Positions 1-48,538 of a DNA stretch of 64,000 bases are shown here, piece after piece. The DNA comes from an uncultured Candidatus Rokubacteria bacterium (GTDB taxonomy: Bacteria; Methylomirabilota; Methylomirabilia; Rokubacteriales; CSP1-6), in the NCBI GenBank assembly GCA_963747235.1, contig CAVVEU010000004.1:64001-128000 (forward strand), in the 5' to 3' direction. How positions within the stretch are numbered: position 1 is the first letter of the stretch; the number at the start of each line of letters is the position of its first letter. The translations under genes were made by a program, and so were the position numbers. The notes beneath the pieces are model-generated. The model ran no database searches and was not told where the DNA came from. It worked only from the letters and a program-made list of their open reading frames with translations.

Positions 1-819
1 GCCGGGCACGGTGCCGCCGGTGGAGTCGGAGCGCAGGACCGACATCTTCCGCTGGTAGCCCATGAACGGGCCCTCGATGGCGCGCAGCGCTTCCTCGCGA
101 GAGGGCGCCACGTGCACCACGCGCATCCCCCACGCCTGACGCTCCAGCGCCGCCACCTCGGCGTCCGACCGGCCGATCGCCAGCGACTCCTCGCGGTAGA
201 GCTGATGCCGGCGCTGCAGCTCCTCGATCGGCACGAAGAACGAGGAGAGCGTGGGCAGGCCCAGGCGCGCGGCCGAGTGCACGCTGTCCTCGCTGTTGGC
301 CGCGATGTAGAGCGGCGGGTGCGGCCGCTGCACCGGGCGCGGGCGCACGTGCAGGCGCTCGGCCGAGTGGAAGCGGCCCGCGAAGTCGAACGGCTCGCCG
401 CTCCACGACTTCTGGATCAGCGTGATGCCTTCCTCGACGCGGGCCCGGCTGTCCTCGCGGTCGGACTGGAAGGTCTGGTAGTCCTGCAGCGTGCCGCCGC
501 GCCCGATGCCCACGTCGAGCCGGCCCCCGCTCACCACGTCCAGCACCGCGAGCTGCTCGGCCAGGTCCACCGGGTGATGGAGCGGCAGCAGGCTCACGCC
601 CATGCCGAGCCGCAGCGCGCGCGTGCGGGCGGCCAGGAACGCGGCGAGCACCGGCGGGACCGGGCAGAGGCCGTAGTCGTTGAAGTGGTGCTCGGCGATC
701 CAGACCGACGAGTAGCCGAGCGATTCGGCGGCCAGCATCTGCTCGAGGCCCGAGTCGTAGACCGCCCGCTCGCTCCACTGGTCATCACGTTGCATGAGGT
801 AGAAGAGTCCGAAGTCCAT
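1..819 (-). CDS. LLM-class flavin-dependent oxidoreductase (3' end runs off window)
   Basis: Manual translation: MDFGLFYLMQ...LGYSSVWIAEHHF...LRLGMGVSLLPLHHPVDLAEQLAVLDVVSGGRLDVGIGRG. Not in the ORF track. Confidence 0.9.
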   Translation of the reverse strand, partial: MDFGLFYLMQRDDQWSERAVYDSGLEQMLAAESLGYSSVWIAEHHFNDYGLCPVPPVLAAFLAARTRALRLGMGVSLLPLHHPVDLAEQLAVLDVVSGGRLDVGIGRGGTLQDYQTFQSDREDSRARVEEGITLIQKSWSGEPFDFAGRFHSAERLHVRPRPVQRPHPPLYIAANSEDSVHSAARLGLPTLSSFFVPIEELQRRHQLYREESLAIGRSDAEVAALERQAWGMRVVHVAPSREEALRAIEGPFMGYQRKMSVLRSDSTGGTVPG

Positions 820-835
820 GGCGCGGTAGCATAGC

Positions 836-865
836 TTGACTTTGGCGCTCGGGGTGCGGCATAGT
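836..865 (+). promoter_or_regulatory. Putative sigma-70 promoter for the peptide ABC operon
   Basis: TTGACT-18nt-CATAGT. Confidence 0.45.
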
Positions 866-955
866 CCCGGCACTCGGAGCCGGTGTAATGACGCATCGGC
901 TCGAGTTCGCTCGAGGGGTCCTTTCCTTCACGAAGACGTGAGAAGGAGAGCCGCG

Positions 956-2644
956 ATGCCCTTCGATCGCCCGTCGCGAACCGGCTCAATCGCCGTACAT
1001 TCCTCACGCGTGCTGGATGGACCGGCCTGGGCGCCAGCGCCCTGGTCGCCGGCCCCGGCCGCCGCCGCGCCCTCGCCCAGGCGGGGGCCAAGTACCCCGA
1101 CTGGATTCCGGCCAGCACCAATCCGCCCAAGCGCGGCGGGGTGCTGACCCGCGCCTCCGCCTGGGATCCGCCGGTGATGGACCCGCGGCTGACCCAGTCG
1201 GTCGGCCTCTACCAGTTCGCGGGCCTCGTCGGCAGCCGGCTGGTCCGCTACGCGTTCCCGGACGAGATCACCGGCCCCTCCGACATGAGCCTCAAGGGCG
1301 ACCTCGCGGAGTCGTGGACGTCGACCCCGGACGCCCGCGTGTGGACCTTCAAGCTGCGCCAGGGCGTGAAGTGGCACAACGTGGCCGCCGCTCAACGGGC
1401 GCGAGTTCGTGGCCGCCGACGTCAAGTACTGCCTCGAGGCCTACGCGAAGGAGGGGGCGCAGTCCTTCACCTTCCAGGAGGTCGAGGGCATCGAGACGCC
1501 GGACAAGCACACCGTCCGCATCCACCTCAAGACGCCCAACGTGCTCTTCCCGCAGAACGTGGCGGAGCCGATCACGGTGATGTTCTCCCGCGAGGTGCTG
1601 GAGGAGGACGGCGATCTCAAGAAGCGCATGATCGGGACCGGCCCCTTCGTCCTGAAGGAGCACAACCGGAAGGTCCGGGTGGTGCTCACGCGCAATCCCG
1701 ACTACTGGGACAAGGGCCGCCCGTACGTGGACGAGTACGTGATCCTCTCGACCCCGGACGCGGCGACCCGCATGGCCGCGTTCCGCACCGGGCAGAGCGA
1801 CTTCATCTGGCTGGCGAGCCCCTCCGAGGTCGAGACGATCCGCAAGACGAACGCCAACGTGCAGGTGCACTCGTACCACAACACGCTGACGCCGTTCGGG
1901 ATCGCGCTGGCCCAGGACAAGCCGCCCTTCAACGACGTGCGCGTGCGCCGCGCGGTCTCGATGGCGATCGACCGGCAGAAGCAGGTGGACACCATCTTCG
2001 AGGGGCACGGCATCCTCGGCTGGGGCGTCCCCTACATCTACTACCAGGACAAGCCGCTCACCGCGGCCAGCTTCGGCCCGTGGTGGCAGTACCGCCCCGC
2101 GGAGGCCAAGAAGCTCCTGGCCGAGGCCGGGCACCCGAACGGCTTCGAGACCACCCTGTTCTACTACGAGTACTTCCCGCAGATGACCTCGCAGGTGCAG
2201 GTCGTGCAGCAGGATCTCAAGCGCAACCTCAACATCAACGTCAAGATCACCAAGCTCGACTACACGACCTACTACGGGCGCTACGTCGAGAGCAAGTGGG
2301 ACGGCATGGCGTGGGGCTTCCAGTCGGGGCACGCGATCGGCCTCGACGAGCGCACCTACCAGTACATGCACTCCAAGTCCACGAAGAACTTCTTCCGCGT
2401 CGCCGATCCGGTCATCGACGAGCTGACCACCAAGCTGCGCCAGACCCCGGGGCAGGCCGATCAGCGGGCGCTCACCAAGAAGATCGTGGACCGGGAGTTC
2501 GACCAGGTGCTCCGGATGTGGATGCCCTACGACAACGGGTTCCTGGTCTTCCAGCCGCACATGCGCAACGGGGCCGCGGCCGCCCTCCGGCGCACCGACG
2601 GCTACGGCTCCTCCACCATCTCGCGGGTCTGGCTGGACAAGTAG
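956..2644 (+). CDS. ABC substrate-binding protein, family 5 (peptide/nickel type), Tat signal; frameshifted
   Basis: NRRTFL Tat motif, KRGGVL, GDLAESW...TFKLRQGVKWH, GTGPF, PPFNDVRVRRA. Frame breaks near 975 and 1390. Confidence 0.9.
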
Positions 2645-20120: not shown

Positions 20121-20159
20121 CCCCTCACCCTGCCCTCTCCCCCTGGGCGGGGGAGAGGG
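20121..20159 (+). repeat. REP-like palindrome, copy 1
   Basis: CCCCTCACCCTG-CCCTCTCCCCC-loop-GGGGGAGAGGG. Confidence 0.85.
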
Positions 20160-22456: not shown

Positions 22457-22556
22457 GGGGACGCCTCCTCTTCGGTGAGGGGAAACGGGTGCTCGCGCCG
22501 CTACACTAGGGATGGCCCTCTCATTTGTCAACCTTCGGACGGTGACTGGCGCGGGC

Positions 22557-22586
22557 TTGACAGGGTTCCGGGCGAGCTAGCACAGT
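22557..22586 (+). promoter_or_regulatory. Sigma-70 promoter, probably leaderless
   Basis: TTGACA-18nt-CACAGT, 7 nt before ATG 22594. Confidence 0.55.
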
Positions 22587-22593
22587 CGGGCCC

Positions 22594-23751
22594 ATGCTCA
22601 ACGCCACCCGCGACCTCGTCCTGCCCACCACCATCACCGGCTCCTATCCGCGCCCCCACTGGTTCACCGAGGAGCTGCGCGGGCGGGGCTTCAAGGACGC
22701 GCTGGGCGATTCCCGCTTCCGCGAGCAGTACCTGGACGCGGTGGCCTGCCTGGTGCGCGAGCAGGAGATGGCCGGGCTCGACTTCGTCACCGACGGCGAC
22801 TCCCGGTTCGACCTCACGGTGGGCGGCAAGTCGTGGTTCTACTACGTGATCGAGCGCCTGAACGGCATCACCGGGGCCCAGGACCGCTCCACCGGCGGCG
22901 GCTGGAAATCGCTCCGGCCCGGCCACATCCTCTACGAGGTGATGGAGGCCTACCAGCCCGCGGTGGTGGGGGCCAAGCTCACGGGCGGCGCGCTCCAGTA
23001 CGCGGCCCTCTTCAAGACCGCCCAGCGGCTCGCGAACAAGCCGGTGAAGTTCGGCGCGATCACCGCCCAGTCGCTCGCCAAGATGCTGGTGGATCGCCAC
23101 TACGGCGGAGACCGCGACGTGATCCTGGCCCTGGCCGACATCTTCAACGCGGAGCTCAAGGAAGTCGCCGCCGCGGGCTGCCGGGTCATCCAGGTGGAGG
23201 AGCCGCAGCACCACATCGCGGGCGCCATCGGCGCCTCCGACAAGGACCTCGAGTTCTACACCGAGTCGGTGAATCGCGAGATCGCGGGGGTGAACACCGA
23301 GATCTGGCTGCACACGTGCTGGGGCAATCCGAACCAGCAGCCGCTGCACTGGGAGCGGCCGTCCTACGAGCGGTCGCTGCCGTATCTGCTGGCCACCAAC
23401 GCCGACGTGCTCACGCTCGAGTGCGCCTCCACCAACGGCCGCGACCTGCCGCTGCTCGGGAAGCACCGCACCGACAAGAAGATCGCCATCGGGGTCGTGA
23501 ACCACTCCACCGCGGCGGTGGAGCCGCCCGAAGTGGTGGCGAACCTGATCCGCAAGGCGCTGGAGTACGTGCCGCCGGAGCGGCTGATCCTCAGCACCGA
23601 CTGCGGCTTCGGCCGGGAAGGGCTGGCGCGCCGCATCGCGTTCTACAAGAGCGTGGCCATCAATCTGGGCGCGAACATCGTGCGCCGCGAGCTGAAGCTG
23701 CCGGAGGTGGAGATTCCCGCCGCCGATCCGCGCTTCACCTTCGCGGGCTGA
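22594..23751 (+). CDS. Cobalamin-independent methionine synthase II family protein (MetE C-terminal half only)
   Basis: TTITGSYPRP, VTDGD, HTCWGN, LECA, STDCGF Zn ligands. Confidence 0.9.
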   Translation: MLNATRDLVLPTTITGSYPRPHWFTEELRGRGFKDALGDSRFREQYLDAVACLVREQEMAGLDFVTDGDSRFDLTVGGKSWFYYVIERLNGITGAQDRSTGGGWKSLRPGHILYEVMEAYQPAVVGAKLTGGALQYAALFKTAQRLANKPVKFGAITAQSLAKMLVDRHYGGDRDVILALADIFNAELKEVAAAGCRVIQVEEPQHHIAGAIGASDKDLEFYTESVNREIAGVNTEIWLHTCWGNPNQQPLHWERPSYERSLPYLLATNADVLTLECASTNGRDLPLLGKHRTDKKIAIGVVNHSTAAVEPPEVVANLIRKALEYVPPERLILSTDCGFGREGLARRIAFYKSVAINLGANIVRRELKLPEVEIPAADPRFTFAG

Positions 23752-23760
23752 CCAACTCTT

Positions 23761-23798
23761 CCCCTCTCCCCTCTGGGGAGAGGGCAGGGTGAGGGGGG
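23761..23798 (-). repeat. REP-like palindrome, copy 2
   Basis: CCCTCTCCCC-TCT-GGGGAGAGGG-CAGGGTGAGGGG. Confidence 0.85.
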
Positions 23799-23802
23799 TT
23801 CT

Positions 23803-24753
23803 ATGCCGACCATCAAGGTGCGAGACCTGGCCTGGGTGAGGCTGCGGGCGCCGGACCTGGACGCGATGGAGGAGTTCCTCACCCACTTCGGCCTCACGCG
23901 CGCCGCGCGCACGCCGAAGGCGCTCTACATGCGCGGGACCGACCCGGTCCACCACCTCCACGTCACCGAGAAGGCGGACGACGCCGGCTTCGTGGGCTTC
24001 GCCTACCACGCGGCGGGCGAGGGCGACCTGGCGCGGGTGGCGACGGCGCCCGGCGCCTCCGCGGTCGAGGCGATCGACGAGCCGGGCGGCGGCCGGCGGG
24101 TCCGCCTGCGCGAGCCCAACGGCTACCAGATCGAGGTGGTGTGGGGCCTCGAGGCGCCGGCGCCGATCCCGGTGGACTACACCCCGATGAACACCGGCGC
24201 GGAGCCCCTGCGGCGCGCGGGGACGCTGATGCGGCTGCGCAAGTCGCCCACCCCGATCAAGCGGATCGGCCACGGGGTCTTCGGCACGCCGCGCGTCGTC
24301 GAGACCGCACGGTGGTTCCGCGACACGCTGGGCTTCATCGGCTCGGACGACGTGTACGTGGGGACCAAGGACCACATCATCGGCTCGTTCAACCGCTGCG
24401 ATCGCGGGGACGAGTACGTGGATCACCACACGATGTTCTGCGTGATGAACGAGCGGGCCGGCATGAACCACGTCTCGTTCGAGGTGCCGGACGTGGACGC
24501 GGTGTTCAAGGACCACGAGTACCTGGCCGGGCTCGGCAAGTACGAGCACATGTGGGGCGTGGGGCGGCATCTCCTGGGCAGCCAGGTCTACGACTACTGG
24601 GCCGACCCGTGGGGCCGTGTGCACGAGCGGTGGGCGGACACCGACCGGCTGAACGCCCGGAGCGGCTCCAATCTCCTGTCCGCGGAAGAGGGGCTGGTGA
24701 GCCAGTGGGGCGAAGATCCACCGGAGCGATTCCTCCGGCACGTGACGACGTAG
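23803..24753 (+). CDS. VOC family extradiol dioxygenase-like protein
   Basis: Two VOC modules, RIGH, DHH, NHVSFEV, WGVGRHLLGSQVYDYW.DPWG..HE. Confidence 0.88.
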   Translation: MPTIKVRDLAWVRLRAPDLDAMEEFLTHFGLTRAARTPKALYMRGTDPVHHLHVTEKADDAGFVGFAYHAAGEGDLARVATAPGASAVEAIDEPGGGRRVRLREPNGYQIEVVWGLEAPAPIPVDYTPMNTGAEPLRRAGTLMRLRKSPTPIKRIGHGVFGTPRVVETARWFRDTLGFIGSDDVYVGTKDHIIGSFNRCDRGDEYVDHHTMFCVMNERAGMNHVSFEVPDVDAVFKDHEYLAGLGKYEHMWGVGRHLLGSQVYDYWADPWGRVHERWADTDRLNARSGSNLLSAEEGLVSQWGEDPPERFLRHVTT

Positions 24754-25112
24754 CGCCGCTCGCGCGGCTGCGGCGCATCTGCCTCGCGCTGCCGGGGACC
24801 GGCGAGAAGGTCTCCCACGGCGAGCCCACGTTCTGGGTGGGCGGGCGCATGTTCGCCACCTTCGACAACCACCACCACGGCGCCCCGCACGTGGGCGTCT
24901 GGCTCGCGATGCCGCTCGGCGCGCAGGAAGCCCTCGTCTACCAGGACCCCAAGCGCTTCTTCGTGCCGCCCTACGTGGGCACCGCGCGGCTGGGTCGGCG
25001 TGCGCCTCGACGGGCGCCCGAGCTGGAAGGGGGTGAGAAGGTAGTCCGCGAAGTCCTACGCCTTCATCAAGAACAAAAACCCTCTCCCCCGGAGGGGGAG
25101 AGGGCAGGGTGA
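24742..25112 (+). CDS. MmcQ/YjbR family protein; frameshifted, ends approximate
   Basis: LRRICLALPG..EK.SHGEPTF.V, RFFVPPYVG..GWVG. Confidence 0.8.
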
Positions 25113-25117
25113 GGGGG
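25080..25117 (-). repeat. REP-like palindrome, copy 3
   Basis: CCCTCTCCCCC-GGA-GGGGGAGAGGG-CAGGGTGAGGGG. Confidence 0.85.
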
Positions 25118-25132
25118 CGCGCAGCCAGCCCG

Positions 25133-25881
25133 CTACGACCAGACCTCCGTCGGGAACGGCAGCCCCTCGAGGTCGGCGTCGGTGAGCGGCGCGTCCTTCT
25201 CCACGCCGCAGCTCGTCGAGGAACCAGTAGATCTGCCGCAGGTGCTGGGCCGAGTGCCACGTCGTGCGCTCCATGAACTCGGGCGCCGACTGCGGGCCGT
25301 AGTAGGTGCTCACCTCGCCGTCGCACCAGCCGGGCCGCGCGAAGTAGGCCCGGAGCCGCTGGCGGACCGTCTCCCCGTAGCGCGCCACCGCGTCGCCGTC
25401 CGCCATCTCGGGCGGCGCGTTCTCCTCGAACCACGCCCCGTCGAGGTTGCCCTGCTCGCGCGTGTCCGCGTACGAGGCGGCGACCCGGAACACGTGGAAG
25501 CCGAGCTGGTGCACGGTCCGATCGCGCCCCGGGTACTTCATGCCGAGGTGCTCGCGCGGCACCTGCCGGATCGCCCGCTGGGTCGCGTCCAGGACGACGT
25601 CCATCCGCTCGGCGAGCTGGGCCGGGCTCAGCTTCTTCGGCGCGCGGTAGCGCACGCCCGACCAGCTCGGCCAGCGCCTGCGGGTTCCAGCCGTGCACGA
25701 TGCGCTCGCCCACGATGGTGGCGGGCACGCGCATCACGCCGAACGCTTCGAGGTCGGCCCGGCGCTCCGGCTGAGCCTCGACGTCGAAGCCCTCGAAGGC
25801 CACTCCCCATGACGAAAGCAACTCTTTCGTCTTGGCGCAGGAGCTTCAGCCCTGGCGGTAGTAGACGCGCGCGCGGTCCAT
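25133..25881 (-). CDS. Predicted selenoprotein: glutaredoxin (UxxC)-DinB fusion
   Basis: MDRARVYYRQG-TGA-SSCAKTKELL...RVPATIVG...HGWN, then a DinB domain with HVF and WHSAQH. TGA at 25846-25848. Indels near 25655 and 25208. Confidence 0.82.
25802..25844 (-). promoter_or_regulatory. Bacterial SECIS-like stem-loop
   Basis: GACGAAAG-AGUUG-CUUUCGUC (25811-25831), extended by CCA/UGG and CUCC/GGAG; loop starts 22 nt after the UGA. Confidence 0.75.
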
Positions 25882-25931: not shown

Positions 25932-27292
25932 TCACTCCACGGGCCCGATGCCGCGGCGGCGGAAGATCCGCCTGAGGATGGCCGCGTGCCGCCCTCGGTA
26001 GAGGTTGCGGTCGGCGTCGAGCATGGACCGCGCCCCGCGCGCGAAGGTGGTGAAGCCGTCGAGCTGGAAGTGGCTCTCCACGATGATGCGATCCGCCACG
26101 GGCCGCCCGGTTGCCTTCCAGATGTCCCACAGCGTGGCCGACCAGATCTGGCCGTTGTCGTGCTCGTCGGCCCGCGGGCCGTGGTCGAAGCTCTCGTAGG
26201 TGAGGCGCGAGTCGACCCGCCGGACGCAGGGCGGGTTGCCGTCGCCGAGCGCGCCGTCCCAGCTCATCACCGCCTCGACGTACGGGTCCCGCTTCTTCGC
26301 GGCGAAGAAGCTGGCCGCGAAGTAGTCGCCGAACCCTTCGCCCATCGCGGCCGCCTCCGGTGACTGGCCGAAGTCGGGGCAGATGGCGTCCTGGAGCGCG
26401 TGCCCGAACTCGTGGAGCACGGTCTCGCCGTCCTCCGCGTCGTCCACGTCGCCGGTGCCGAAGGTCAGGGTGCGCTCGCCCGGGCTGTACCACGAGTTGT
26501 CGTCGCGGGTGCCGCGCGCGTCCACCTCGAGAGGCCGCCGGAACAGGCGACGCGCACCCCGGTAGCCGAGCGTCTCGAGGTAGGCGATGGCCTCGTTCAC
26601 GTGGTAGTAGGCCGAGGCCTCCTCGAAGCCGGCGCGGAAGCGCGGCACCGAGAAGTCGAGCCGCGCGCTGCGCAGGCGCTTCGTTGTCAGCCGCGTGGTG
26701 ACCCGCCGGCCGTCCAGTCGGCTGTTGCCACGCAGGCCGGTGAGCTTCACGTCGACGTAAGCGGTCGCCGGCGGGCGCCGCACCCGGTCGGCCTCGTTGA
26801 GCGGCTCGAAGTCATGCGCCCGGGCCATCGGATTCGGCAGGAACACCATCGCGCGCCCCGTCGCCTCGGCGAGGTTGTCGTACCGGCTGAGGATGCTGCC
26901 GGTCACCGCGTGCACGTAGGTGATGACCTCCGAGCGGGGCCTGGTGCGGTGGATCCGCACGCGCCAGGCCGGATGCAGCAGCCGCTTGGCCGGGTACCAG
27001 AGCAGCTCCGGCTTGCCGACCACCCACGCGCGCCCCCGGCCGCGTCCCCCGCCCGCGAACGCCGCCCGCACCGCCGTCTCGCCCGCGAGGCGGGGCTCCT
27101 CGGTCTTGCGGAGCACGTCGTCCGGCACAGCCCGGCTCTTCACCAGGTACACCCGCCGGTCGCCGATGTGCACGGTGACGTAGGCGCGGTGAATGCGGCG
27201 GCGGCGCCAGAGCTGCTGGAGGTGACGTGGCGGCCGGGGCCGGGCGCGGCGCACCCGGCGCGACGACCGCCGGAGCGCGTGACGCGCCGCAT
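25932..27292 (-). CDS. M36/M4-type zinc metallopeptidase; N-terminus frameshifted
   Basis: SAYYH, DNSWYSP, ETVLHEFGH, AMGEGFGDYFA, DEHDNGQIW. Confidence 0.85.
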
Positions 27293-30516: not shown

Positions 30517-31130
30517 ACAACCGAACGGACCACGGGTTCCTGATCCTGGCGGACGTTTCCGGCTTCACCGCCTTCGTGACCACCACGGAGCTCGAGCACG
30601 GCTCCGACATCATCGCGGCCCTTCTCGACGAGGTGGTCGGCCACCTCTCGCCGCCGCTCGAGATCCAGGAGATCGAGGGTGACGCGGTGTTCGCGCTCGG
30701 CGGGGAGGGATCTCCGCTGCCGAAGGCGCGGTTGCTCGAGGTCCTGGAAGACGCCTTCGCCGCCTTCAAGACGCGGCAGCGGGCGATGGCGGCCGACGAG
30801 ACCTGCGCCTGCGGCGCGTGCCAGCAGACCGGGACCCTCGATCTGAAGATGGTGGTCCACCACGGCCCGTTCCTGCGCCACACGGTGGGCGGGCGGGCCC
30901 GCGTGACCGGCACCGCGGTCATCCTGGTGCACCGGCTCCTGAAGAACGGGGTCGGGCGGAAGGGCGGCTACGCGCTCCTCACCGAGCCGGTGCTGCGGTC
31001 ACTCGGGATCGACGCGGTGGAGGCCGGGCTGCCGGCCCACACCGAGTCCTACGAGCACCTGGGCGACGTGCGCTGCTTCGTGCGCGACCTCACTCCCCCC
31101 CCTCTCCCCGCTGGGGAGAGGGCAGGGTGA
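30513..31130 (+). CDS. DUF2652 domain protein (nucleotide cyclase-like fold)
   Basis: LADVSGFT.F, EIEGDAVF, CACGAC, LKMVVHHG, ILVHRLLKN. Confidence 0.85.
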   Translation: MNNRTDHGFLILADVSGFTAFVTTTELEHGSDIIAALLDEVVGHLSPPLEIQEIEGDAVFALGGEGSPLPKARLLEVLEDAFAAFKTRQRAMAADETCACGACQQTGTLDLKMVVHHGPFLRHTVGGRARVTGTAVILVHRLLKNGVGRKGGYALLTEPVLRSLGIDAVEAGLPAHTESYEHLGDVRCFVRDLTPPPLPAGERAG

Positions 31131-31134
31131 GGGG
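31099..31134 (-). repeat. REP-like palindrome, copy 4
   Basis: CCCTCTCCCC-GCT-GGGGAGAGGG-CAGGGTGAGGGG. Confidence 0.85.
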
Positions 31135-48503: not shown

Positions 48504-48538
48504 CCCCTCACCCTGCCCTCTCCCCAGAGGGGAGAGGG
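48504..48538 (+). repeat. REP-like palindrome, copy 5
   Basis: CCCCTCACCCTG-CCCTCTCCCC-AGA-GGGGAGAGGG. Confidence 0.85.

Follow-up and report, generated by a model that had tools for sequence, protein, structure and literature searches.

A glutaredoxin–DinB fusion gene with a predicted selenocysteine codon in a Candidatus Rokubacteria genome and its widespread family

Described relatives and the two domains

Enzymes of the DinB superfamily are four-helix-bundle metalloenzymes, most of them with three conserved His, and in mycothiol S-transferase the thiol is bound through the metal, as set out in passages of PMC10950700. Among selenoproteins, "Glutaredoxin, UxxC" (U, selenocysteine, Sec) is a listed family in Table 1 of the review PMC13188914. 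Here we describe a gene that combines these known kinds, a thioredoxin-fold UxxC selenoprotein and a DinB S-transferase-like enzyme, in one predicted chain. It lies in a 64,000-nucleotide stretch (the window) from an uncultured Candidatus Rokubacteria bacterium, positions 64,001 to 128,000 of contig CAVVEU010000004.1 in assembly GCA_963747235.1. An earlier sequence-only reading of the window had proposed a single-chain Sec-glutaredoxin/DinB fusion, one gene and not two, and homologues with one uninterrupted frame bear this out: the 5' end of the gene is covered in 18 of 20 related loci taken from species-representative genomes, and all 18 have a single unbroken frame, the same architecture and a TGA at the same codon. 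That a family of Sec-containing glutaredoxin–DinB (Grx-DinB) fusion genes really exists we regard as nearly certain.

The N-terminal 75 residues or so had been credited with hallmarks of glutaredoxin and NrdH (UxxC, an RVP loop), and both the Pfam score and the fold matches agree. Residues 1-75 reach 44.5 bits against Pfam Glutaredoxin PF00462 (cut-off 22.9), a model matched at E <= 0.001 by 45 of the 81 rows of the family alignment, many of which lack the N-terminus. The redox motif is U12-S-S-C15 in the window and C-[ST]-[SA]-C in all 32 rows covering the N-terminus, and the proline of the cis-Pro loop is kept in 81 of 81 rows. By sequence profile, the best match of the redoxin part in the Protein Data Bank (PDB) is 7c10 (E 1.3e-13), which we take to be the Cys version of a natural clostridial selenoprotein; NrdH 1h75 is also matched (E 7e-9). 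In the structural model of an intact relative (locus L018, see below) the thioredoxin fold matches 3zij with Z 13.4 (root-mean-square deviation, rmsd, 1.4; 74 residues aligned) and 1h75 with Z 12.8. Thus, dithiol glutaredoxins and NrdH (7c10 "Dithiol cGrx1", 1h75, 3zij BC3987) share with the new protein a thioredoxin fold of about 75 residues, U/CxxC at the start of helix 1 and the cis-Pro loop, at structural Z of 12-13.4 and 1.4-1.9 Å. However, the known ones are small stand-alone proteins, whereas here the fold forms the N-terminal third of a 248-residue protein with the motif U/C-[ST]-S-C, and the NCBIfam NrdH, YruB and Grx models all stay far under their cut-offs (YruB-type Grx 54.9 bits; the NrdH equivalogs TIGR02194 39.3 against 85.75 and NF007657 32.8 against 131).

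Other Grx-like groups differ in their partners. The UXX-star and HUGP-GUXX-star selenoproteins (NF041212, NF041211, NF047338, NF045501) are Grx-like, some of them fused, and the N-domain matches them weakly (Uxx-star 33.9 bits, cut-off 66), but all remain below cut-off and none has a DinB domain; their Sec presumably lies near the C-terminal end of the protein, to judge from the family name alone. Identity with GOS_C (NF045500, UxxC) was rejected, this model being absent from the NCBIfam matches at E <= 0.01 of one full-length Sec form and four Cys forms. Glutaredoxins tethered to a catalytic domain are represented by Prx5-Grx (1nm3), Grx/ferredoxin-disulfide-reductase (7pwe) and Grx-NrdB, with N-domain Z of 9.8 for 1nm3 and 12.5 for 7pwe. 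In these enzymes the Grx serves to reduce its partner at a Cys or radical site, whereas the DinB domain here has no conserved Cys in the 81-row alignment.

The rest of the protein had been read as a DinB-like bundle with a His triad (HVF / WHSAQH), and the family alignment upholds this. The triad (H129, H209 and H213 in the window; H128, H208 and H212 in L018, whose numbering plus one gives that of the window) is kept in 79, 81 and 81 of the 81 rows, the first His being Gln in two. We equated it with the metal ligands of solved DinB members by overall structural superposition. DinB_2 (PF12867) is matched by 63 of the rows at E <= 0.001 (best 2.6e-14) and DinB (PF05163) by seven, and TIGR03086 gives 21-27 bits (21.3 for the window) against a cut-off of 83. 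Invariant or near-invariant positions, in L018 numbering, are P52, R120, H128, G194, E203, R204, W207, H208, Q211, H212, R214, Q215, L239, P240 and P242, with several conserved Arg and Gln along the HxxxH helix.

The AlphaFold2 model of L018, a relative whose identity to the window is about 95% as judged by eye, was computed from the 81-row alignment with the TGA read as Cys. It is confident throughout (pLDDT 96.6, pTM 0.91), and the pTM suggests a fixed mutual packing of the two predicted domains. Residues 1-76 superpose on NrdH/Grx-type redoxins and about 80 to 235 on DinB/YfiT bundles, namely 6iz2 (Z 15.4, rmsd 2.2, 141 residues aligned), 2hkv and 3di5 (both 14.2), YfiT 1rxq (13.6), the mycothiol-dependent maleylpyruvate isomerase 2nsg (12.7), the mycothiol S-transferase 8f5v (11.7), BstA 5wk0 (10.5) and EgtB-type proteins (about 10); in the PDB sequence profile search, DinB-family entries range from E 1.7e-5 to 0.08. 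The DinB/YfiT superfamily (YfiT/BstA, mycothiol S-transferase, maleylpyruvate isomerase, the DinB domains of EgtB/OvsA/SenA) thus shares the four-helix bundle and the His...HxxxH triad. In contrast, its matched structures have no fused redoxin and use a free thiol, their sequence similarity to Grx-DinB is marginal, and the new family adds a GRDR motif, the ER..WH..QH.RQ helix and a GLPxP tail.

In overall layout the protein also recalls the Cys-type glutathione S-transferases (GSTs; Omega, Xi, DHAR), in which a thiol-binding thioredoxin-fold domain at the N-terminus packs against a C-terminal domain made of helices only. Many GSTs appear in the Foldseek listing along the whole length of L018, but with TM values of 0.25-0.35 and rmsd of 10-16 Å, a likeness of topology only. 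There is no GST_C Pfam match, and GST_N_3 is touched by one of the 81 rows (E 7.7e-4). The helical domains are not homologous, Grx-DinB having a DinB bundle with a putative metal site and GSTs having no metal site, so any resemblance between them would be convergent.

Separately from the fusion, a DinB-domain paralogue occurs in the same genome (locus L200, 1975-2496 on the minus strand, equal to G000:C40:65974-66495), 38% identical over query residues 47-227. It lacks the His triad, with LAFGLF and LERVTGAAADSL where HxF and WHxAQH would stand, and it either forms the 3' end of an enoyl-CoA hydratase-like gene or lies just behind it; relatives at genus level give partial matches of the same sort.

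The predicted selenocysteine codon and the spread of the family

With both inserted bases discounted (see below), the coding sequence runs over about 248 codons from an ATG at 25881-25879 to a TAG at 25135-25133 (Table 1). Frame 1 reads MDRARVYYRQG, the TGA, then SSCAKTKELL...RVP...HGWNPQALAELVG, the stretch past the TGA being SSCAKTKELLSSWGVAFEGFDVEAQPERRADLEAFGVMRVPATIVGERIVHGWNPQALAELVG; frame 2, one base on, reads (V)RYRAPKKL...GFHVF...ERTTWHSAQHLRQIYWFLDEL, a piece also given as RYRAPKKLSPAQLAERMDVVLDATQ...GFHVFRV...TYYGPQSAPEFMERTTWHSAQHLRQIYWFLDEL; and frame 3 supplies GVEKDAPLTDADLEGLPFPTEVWS before the stop. Frame 2 carries the linker and DinB part down to about 25207, and frame 3 carries it after.

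Table 1. Features of the Grx-DinB gene in window coordinates, with the related loci that have a GST neighbour
Feature	Position or loci	Strand	Basis or remark
Whole Grx(Sec)-DinB fusion coding sequence	25133..25881	-	Three-frame translation; collinear with the genes of intact relatives
Glutaredoxin/NrdH-like thioredoxin-fold domain, residues 1-75	25657..25881	-	UxxC, RVP loop (P53), HGWNP; PF00462
Linker, DinB/YfiT-like four-helix bundle and conserved C-terminal tail (...PLTDADLEGLPFPxEVWS)	25136..25655	-	DinB_2, structural matches
In-frame TGA, predicted Sec codon U12, first residue of U-S-S-C	25846..25848	-	Codon conservation
bSECIS-like hairpin	25811..25831	-	Fold; published constraints
First frame break, at the junction of Grx domain and linker: one base too many in a C run (coding strand GGG)	25657..25659	-	Absent from relatives
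Second frame break, one extra base, 24 codons ahead of the stop	25206..25206	-	Absent from relatives
His129 codon (GFHVF), putative metal triad member 1	25494..25496	-	Family alignment
His209 and His213 codons (WHSAQH), HxxxH pair on the last helix	25242..25256	-	Family alignment
GST-neighbour loci	L184, L160, L174, L178, L180-L182, L188, L190, L195-L197, L199		mnmA beyond the GST, selA-selB downstream

All the computational signs expected of a Sec codon are present at the TGA. Across the 18 loci, VY[YF]RQG ahead of it is conserved as protein while its DNA varies synonymously; from the TGA to about 48 nt downstream, by contrast, the DNA itself is nearly invariant, with five substitutions in three of the 18 loci (counted by eye), even though it includes codons seldom used in a GC-rich genome (AAA, TTG, CTT, TCA). 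The same stretch folds into a hairpin, GACGAAAG-AGUUG-CUUUCGUC (25831-25811), with an 8-bp stem and a 5-nt apical loop containing GU, and three more pairs extend it to 25807-25835. A bacterial selenocysteine insertion sequence (bSECIS) is described, in PMC13188914, by a 3-9 nt apical loop with G within the two leading positions, a 4-16 bp stem, a distance of 16-37 nt from the UGA and a folding energy of at most -7.5 kcal/mol; the window hairpin, with a loop that begins 22 nt past the UGA and -8.9 kcal/mol, satisfies all four constraints. The genome furthermore encodes the Sec machinery, selB (365 bits), selA (578), selD (228) and tRNA-Sec (69) all scoring above cut-off; selB, selA and tRNA-Sec stand together on one contig, other than that of the window, and selD is frame-split in the assembly.

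The hairpin follows the codon through the family. In each of the 94 unique Sec-form sequences, the first 48 nt past the TGA contain an unbroken stem of 6 bp or more (median 8), with apical loops of GUU in 48, GUG in 14 and AGUUG in eight, whereas the median stem of the 62 unique Cys forms is 4 bp (Mann-Whitney p = 6e-27). Likewise, the shuffle z-scores of the hairpin are -1.48 for Sec and -0.26 for Cys forms (p = 8e-13), and a strict bSECIS test restricted to ungapped stems is passed by 63 of the 94 Sec forms, by one of the 62 Cys forms and by the window. Codon conservation, constraint at the RNA level, the hairpin, the machinery and the matched Cys homologues together lead us to read the TGA as Sec. 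Reassignment of UGA to another residue was dropped on account of the Sec-specific hairpin, the Sec machinery and the Cys found at this codon in homologues.

A protein search with the intact relative P0009 among 1.84 billion cluster representatives gave 687 matches at E <= 1e-3 and 367 at E <= 1e-10. From the 150 matches listed, 80 proteins of 205-280 residues matching most of the query were taken; 31 are full length with P-G-C-[ST]-S-C, and 49 begin just past the expected site of the motif, as would be expected if gene callers restart past the TGA. Natural Cys forms have 247-276 residues and the motif PGC[ST]SC. Two scans of species-representative genomes yielded at least 580 and at least 520 confirmed loci. 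The architecture had been treated as rare by the sequence-only reading, which in this respect has to be revised, as each scan confirmed more than 500 loci of what is a large family.

The Sec or Cys state was classified in the best 80 loci of each scan, some contigs being present in both sets. The first set, obtained with Cys-biased patterns, contains 56 Cys and 23 TGA loci and one unresolved, and the second, obtained with the motif-blind pattern WH[SAM]AQHxRQ, 69 TGA and 11 Cys loci. Pooled with the 18 Methylomirabilota loci, these amount to 110 TGA loci (94 unique 75-mers) and 67 Cys (TGY) loci (62 unique), so that the survey of Sec versus Cys forms suggested earlier finds both among the loci examined. 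In a FastTree tree built from 156 unique full-length translations, the state switches at least five times. Among the Cys-form loci fetched, L106, labelled Burkholderia sp. L27(2015), is alone in having no mark as a metagenome-assembled genome.

By record label, the hosts are mainly Alpha-, Beta- and Gammaproteobacteria and Methylomirabilota/Rokubacteria. Of 201 genomes sampled from the phylum of the window, 126 have the gene (70 of the 104 of high quality), tallies that include three unpublished genomes (G034, G063, G106); two families hold most of it (107/125 and 16/16 genomes) and the others are nearly without the gene. In nearly all full-length matches listed for this sample, the open frame ends about eight codons before the start of the query. 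Label-based taxon counts are unreliable, since some contigs are probably mis-binned: five metagenome-assembled genomes labelled Nitrosotalea, Acidoferrum, Verrucomicrobiia, Limnocylindria and Deferrimicrobiaceae (L017, L019, L022, L023, L026) have copies that share 84-86% identity with the Rokubacteria query and also its synteny.

Proposed chemistry, frame breaks and competing readings

How could such a protein work? We hypothesize that the His3-bound metal of the DinB domain would hold and polarise a substrate of small size, probably an anion, or the adduct of that substrate with glutathione, which the selenolate of the tethered redoxin (the thiolate in Cys forms) would then attack. The strictly kept second Cys would resolve the intermediate, leaving an internal Se-S bond, and glutathione or the thioredoxin system would re-reduce the motif. 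Because this second Cys of UxxC/CxxC is strictly kept, a redox cycle of the reductase type is favoured over a plain transferase, and since the DinB domain has no conserved Cys, the redoxin motif more likely acts on a substrate than recycles a Cys of its partner. Judged from its sequence, the protein would thus probably be a self-contained metal-dependent (seleno)thiol oxidoreductase rather than a simple conjugating transferase. The mechanism as a whole, with its metal substrate site, selenolate attack, Se-S closure and re-reduction, is put forward tentatively, as we infer each of its chemical steps.

Taken together, we put at about 0.65 our confidence in the explanation as a whole, namely a genuine selenoprotein gene of a widespread uncharacterised family, with a Sec redoxin, a short linker, a DinB/YfiT-type bundle with a putative three-His metal site and a proline-rich tail; the mechanism in the form given is less likely than not. 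Several observations weigh against this. The frame-2 piece of the window scores 23.6 bits against DinB_2, 1.2 under the cut-off of 24.8, so that of the two Pfam matches expected from the sequence-only reading, Glutaredoxin was obtained (44.5 against 22.9 bits) and DinB_2 fell short for this piece. There is no universal partner gene in the neighbourhoods, and in Methylomirabilota nothing is kept beyond local synteny. Furthermore, a 3.8 kb syntenic alignment holds five window-unique 1-nt indels in 24981-25657 and zero in 22550-24980; five within 700 bases across two adjacent genes, with none in the preceding 2.4 kb, could be real regional decay, and the insertion at 25206 stands outside any homopolymer.

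These last points concern the integrity of this copy. Indels had been suspected at about 25655 and 25208, and there are indeed single inserted bases close by, in the CCC run at 25657-25659 and at 25206. Both occur only in the window and are absent from five aligned relatives (the gene was aligned with four close relatives and the 3.8 kb of syntenic DNA with five); three of the five window-unique indels (24981, 25035, 25054) fall in the convergent YjbR-like gene. The broken 199-residue open reading frame is the recorded predicted protein of the contig (P0002), so the breaks belong to the deposited assembly. In the phylum sample, matches span query residues 1-227/228 unbroken, bar contig-end cuts and shorter paralogue matches, and the copy of the window genome comes as two pieces, 1-60 and 54-204. 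Elsewhere in this genome selD lies in two frames (G000:C27:46033-46945 and G000:C8:303114-303868 are listed for selD and selD-like) and a second selD-like locus in three pieces, which suggests frameshift errors elsewhere in the assembly. Likely, both extra bases are assembly errors, in which case the organism would make the full protein of about 248 residues.

The alternative is genuine loss of function in this strain, where frameshifts would have turned this copy of an otherwise real family into a pseudogene and disabled the YjbR-like gene next to it. We consider this unlikely. The breaks are present in the deposited sequence, as the recorded P0002 attests, and the clustering of indels described above would fit decay; however, the gene contains no stop codons and no large deletions, its DNA identity to the closest relative is 92.6-97% across the gene (300-nt bins), the SECIS stretch is undamaged, and the frame-split selD and selD-like gene are as expected of an error-prone assembly. 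Programmed frameshifting is excluded, since neither shift occurs in the 18 translated loci or in the five relatives aligned at the DNA level.

The surroundings of the gene also hold a repeat. Five exact copies of the 22-mer GGGGAGAGGGCAGGGTGAGGGG (0.01 expected) are spread over the window, always intergenic, at 20121-20142 (-), 23775-23796 (+), 25095-25116 (+), 31113-31134 (+) and 48504-48525 (-), one copy standing just beyond the Grx-DinB stop, between the convergent genes. It looks like a palindromic repeat of the REP type and may add to assembly problems in this region.

A different role for the redoxin is a second competitor to the substrate-attacking selenolate proposed here. The redoxin could be a redox switch or a metal-handling module, in which the Sec/Cys pair ligates or delivers the DinB metal or gates its site, and the DinB domain uses a free low-molecular-weight thiol. 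In its favour, passages of PMC10950700 have DinB enzymes normally using a free metal-bound thiol, PMC13188914 has Sec as a metal ligand in other selenoenzymes, and the modelled fixed packing (pTM 0.91) would suit it. On the other hand, the sequence is nearest to the catalytic dithiol glutaredoxins and NrdH, as seen from the 7c10 and 1h75 scores, and Sec in UxxC thioredoxin-fold proteins is generally read as the catalytic redox residue, according to PMC13188914. We therefore rate the switch or metal module as quite improbable.

A third possibility arises from the neighbourhoods of one Burkholderiales clade of Sec forms, which show the gene order mnmA, divergent GST, Grx(Sec)-DinB, sometimes a TctC gene, and selA. 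In 13 of 80 loci selA is found downstream on the same strand, no more than 1.5 kb away (directly adjacent in eight), and in four genomes of the clade selB follows it, judged from matching coordinates; mnmA is upstream in 18 of 80 loci. The divergent gene is a canonical GST in 13 loci of the clade, for instance at 715-1323 (-) of L184 (GST_N_3 59 bits, GST_C_2 52 bits). In four of five checked genomes with the selA linkage, no formate dehydrogenase with an in-frame TGA was found, which hints that Grx(Sec)-DinB may be a principal selenoprotein of this clade. The linkage supports a true selenoprotein gene. It could also mean that the protein works in selenium metabolism, for instance by reducing selenite-glutathione adducts or passing selenide to SelD, and not in general detoxification; but it is restricted to one clade, the sel genes of the window genome are on another contig, and selenoprotein genes often adjoin sel genes without acting on selenium. 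Such a role thus appears very unlikely, and the oxidoreductase proposed above is preferred.

Other neighbours vary. In 19 of the 80 first-set loci, mostly about 50-53% identical to the query, a short-chain dehydrogenase gene on the same strand stops 12-41 bases upstream of the fusion gene. Around the copy in the window stand genes for an M36-like peptidase, two proteins without a Pfam match, a two-domain VOC/dioxygenase-like protein, and MetE-like and YjbR-like proteins. The M36 (fungalysin)-like metallopeptidase gene (HEFGH; 25932-27254, minus strand) is directly upstream of Grx-DinB and aligns only in L020, L021 and L036 among the related loci; it is missing from L018, L019, L023-L026, L031 and L033, where Grx-DinB is followed at once by the next conserved segment (window 27300 onwards). 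Present in only some related loci, it is a variable insert. On the other side, the YjbR-like gene (about 24742-25100, plus strand; Pfam YjbR 26.8 bits, under the cut-off of 30.1) is convergent with Grx-DinB, and the MetE-like gene (Meth_synt_2) and the two-domain VOC/extradiol-dioxygenase-like gene (22594-24753, plus strand) are syntenic with it in close Methylomirabilota relatives.

Annotation and meaning

In public records the truncated products of the family have 156-228 residues and are named hypothetical or "DinB family protein". Could the TGA then be a plain stop, the real product being a shorter DinB protein that starts downstream, with the Grx-like piece not co-translated? Those public predictions, which start past the TGA and one of which bears the DinB name, would fit, but the 11 codons preceding the TGA are conserved as protein with synonymous changes, a start past it would strip the Grx fold of its first strand and active site, homologues carry Cys at exactly this codon, and the hairpin is confined to genes with TGA there in a genome that has the Sec machinery, all of which makes a plain stop extremely improbable. 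Since gene callers stop at the TGA, public records are truncated, and both the fusion and its selenium are invisible in annotation. For the Cys forms the architecture is visible to automatic annotation, as the ESM Atlas has clusters to which the name "DinB superfamily/Glutaredoxin domain-containing protein" was given automatically. Neither Sec nor Cys forms score up to the cut-off of any curated NCBIfam model.

The earlier reading knew of no characterisation of this architecture, and a search of full-text literature found no paper that describes a Grx-DinB architecture or links DinB with selenoproteins; nothing relevant was found on selenocysteine in Rokubacteria. The 2026 list of 119 prokaryotic selenoprotein families (PMC13188914) has no DinB entry in Table 1 or section 7, nor does "DinB" occur in the review text. 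The term is likewise absent from the deep-Sep text, the BSepDB text, one possibly incomplete BSepDB supplement and the 2008 ocean-survey paper. That survey contains a "Grx-like" group of 42 Sec sequences, and members of the family may have been counted earlier under "Grx" or "Grx-like" without their C-terminal domain being noted.

What is new here is, in our view, the recognition of a selenoprotein family, widespread but mis-annotated, in which Sec is joined to a predicted DinB metal site. A bolder view, which we hold to be doubtful, is that this is a major selenoprotein family still unlisted and the first to pair Sec with a DinB-type His3 metal centre, in which the selenolate would act directly on a metal-bound substrate, as a convergent metal-assisted counterpart of the Cys-type GSTs; in the Burkholderiales clade with GST, Grx(Sec)-DinB, selA and selB in a row, the Sec machinery may even be retained for the sake of this protein. 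The selA-selB linkage in some freshwater and soil Burkholderiales does suggest that the family helps to explain the retention of the Sec trait. The DinB/S-transferase-like superfamily is huge and most of its members have no known substrates. A DinB member with a built-in thiol or selenol partner offers a tractable handle on the role of the metal site, with natural Sec/Cys pairs for comparison.

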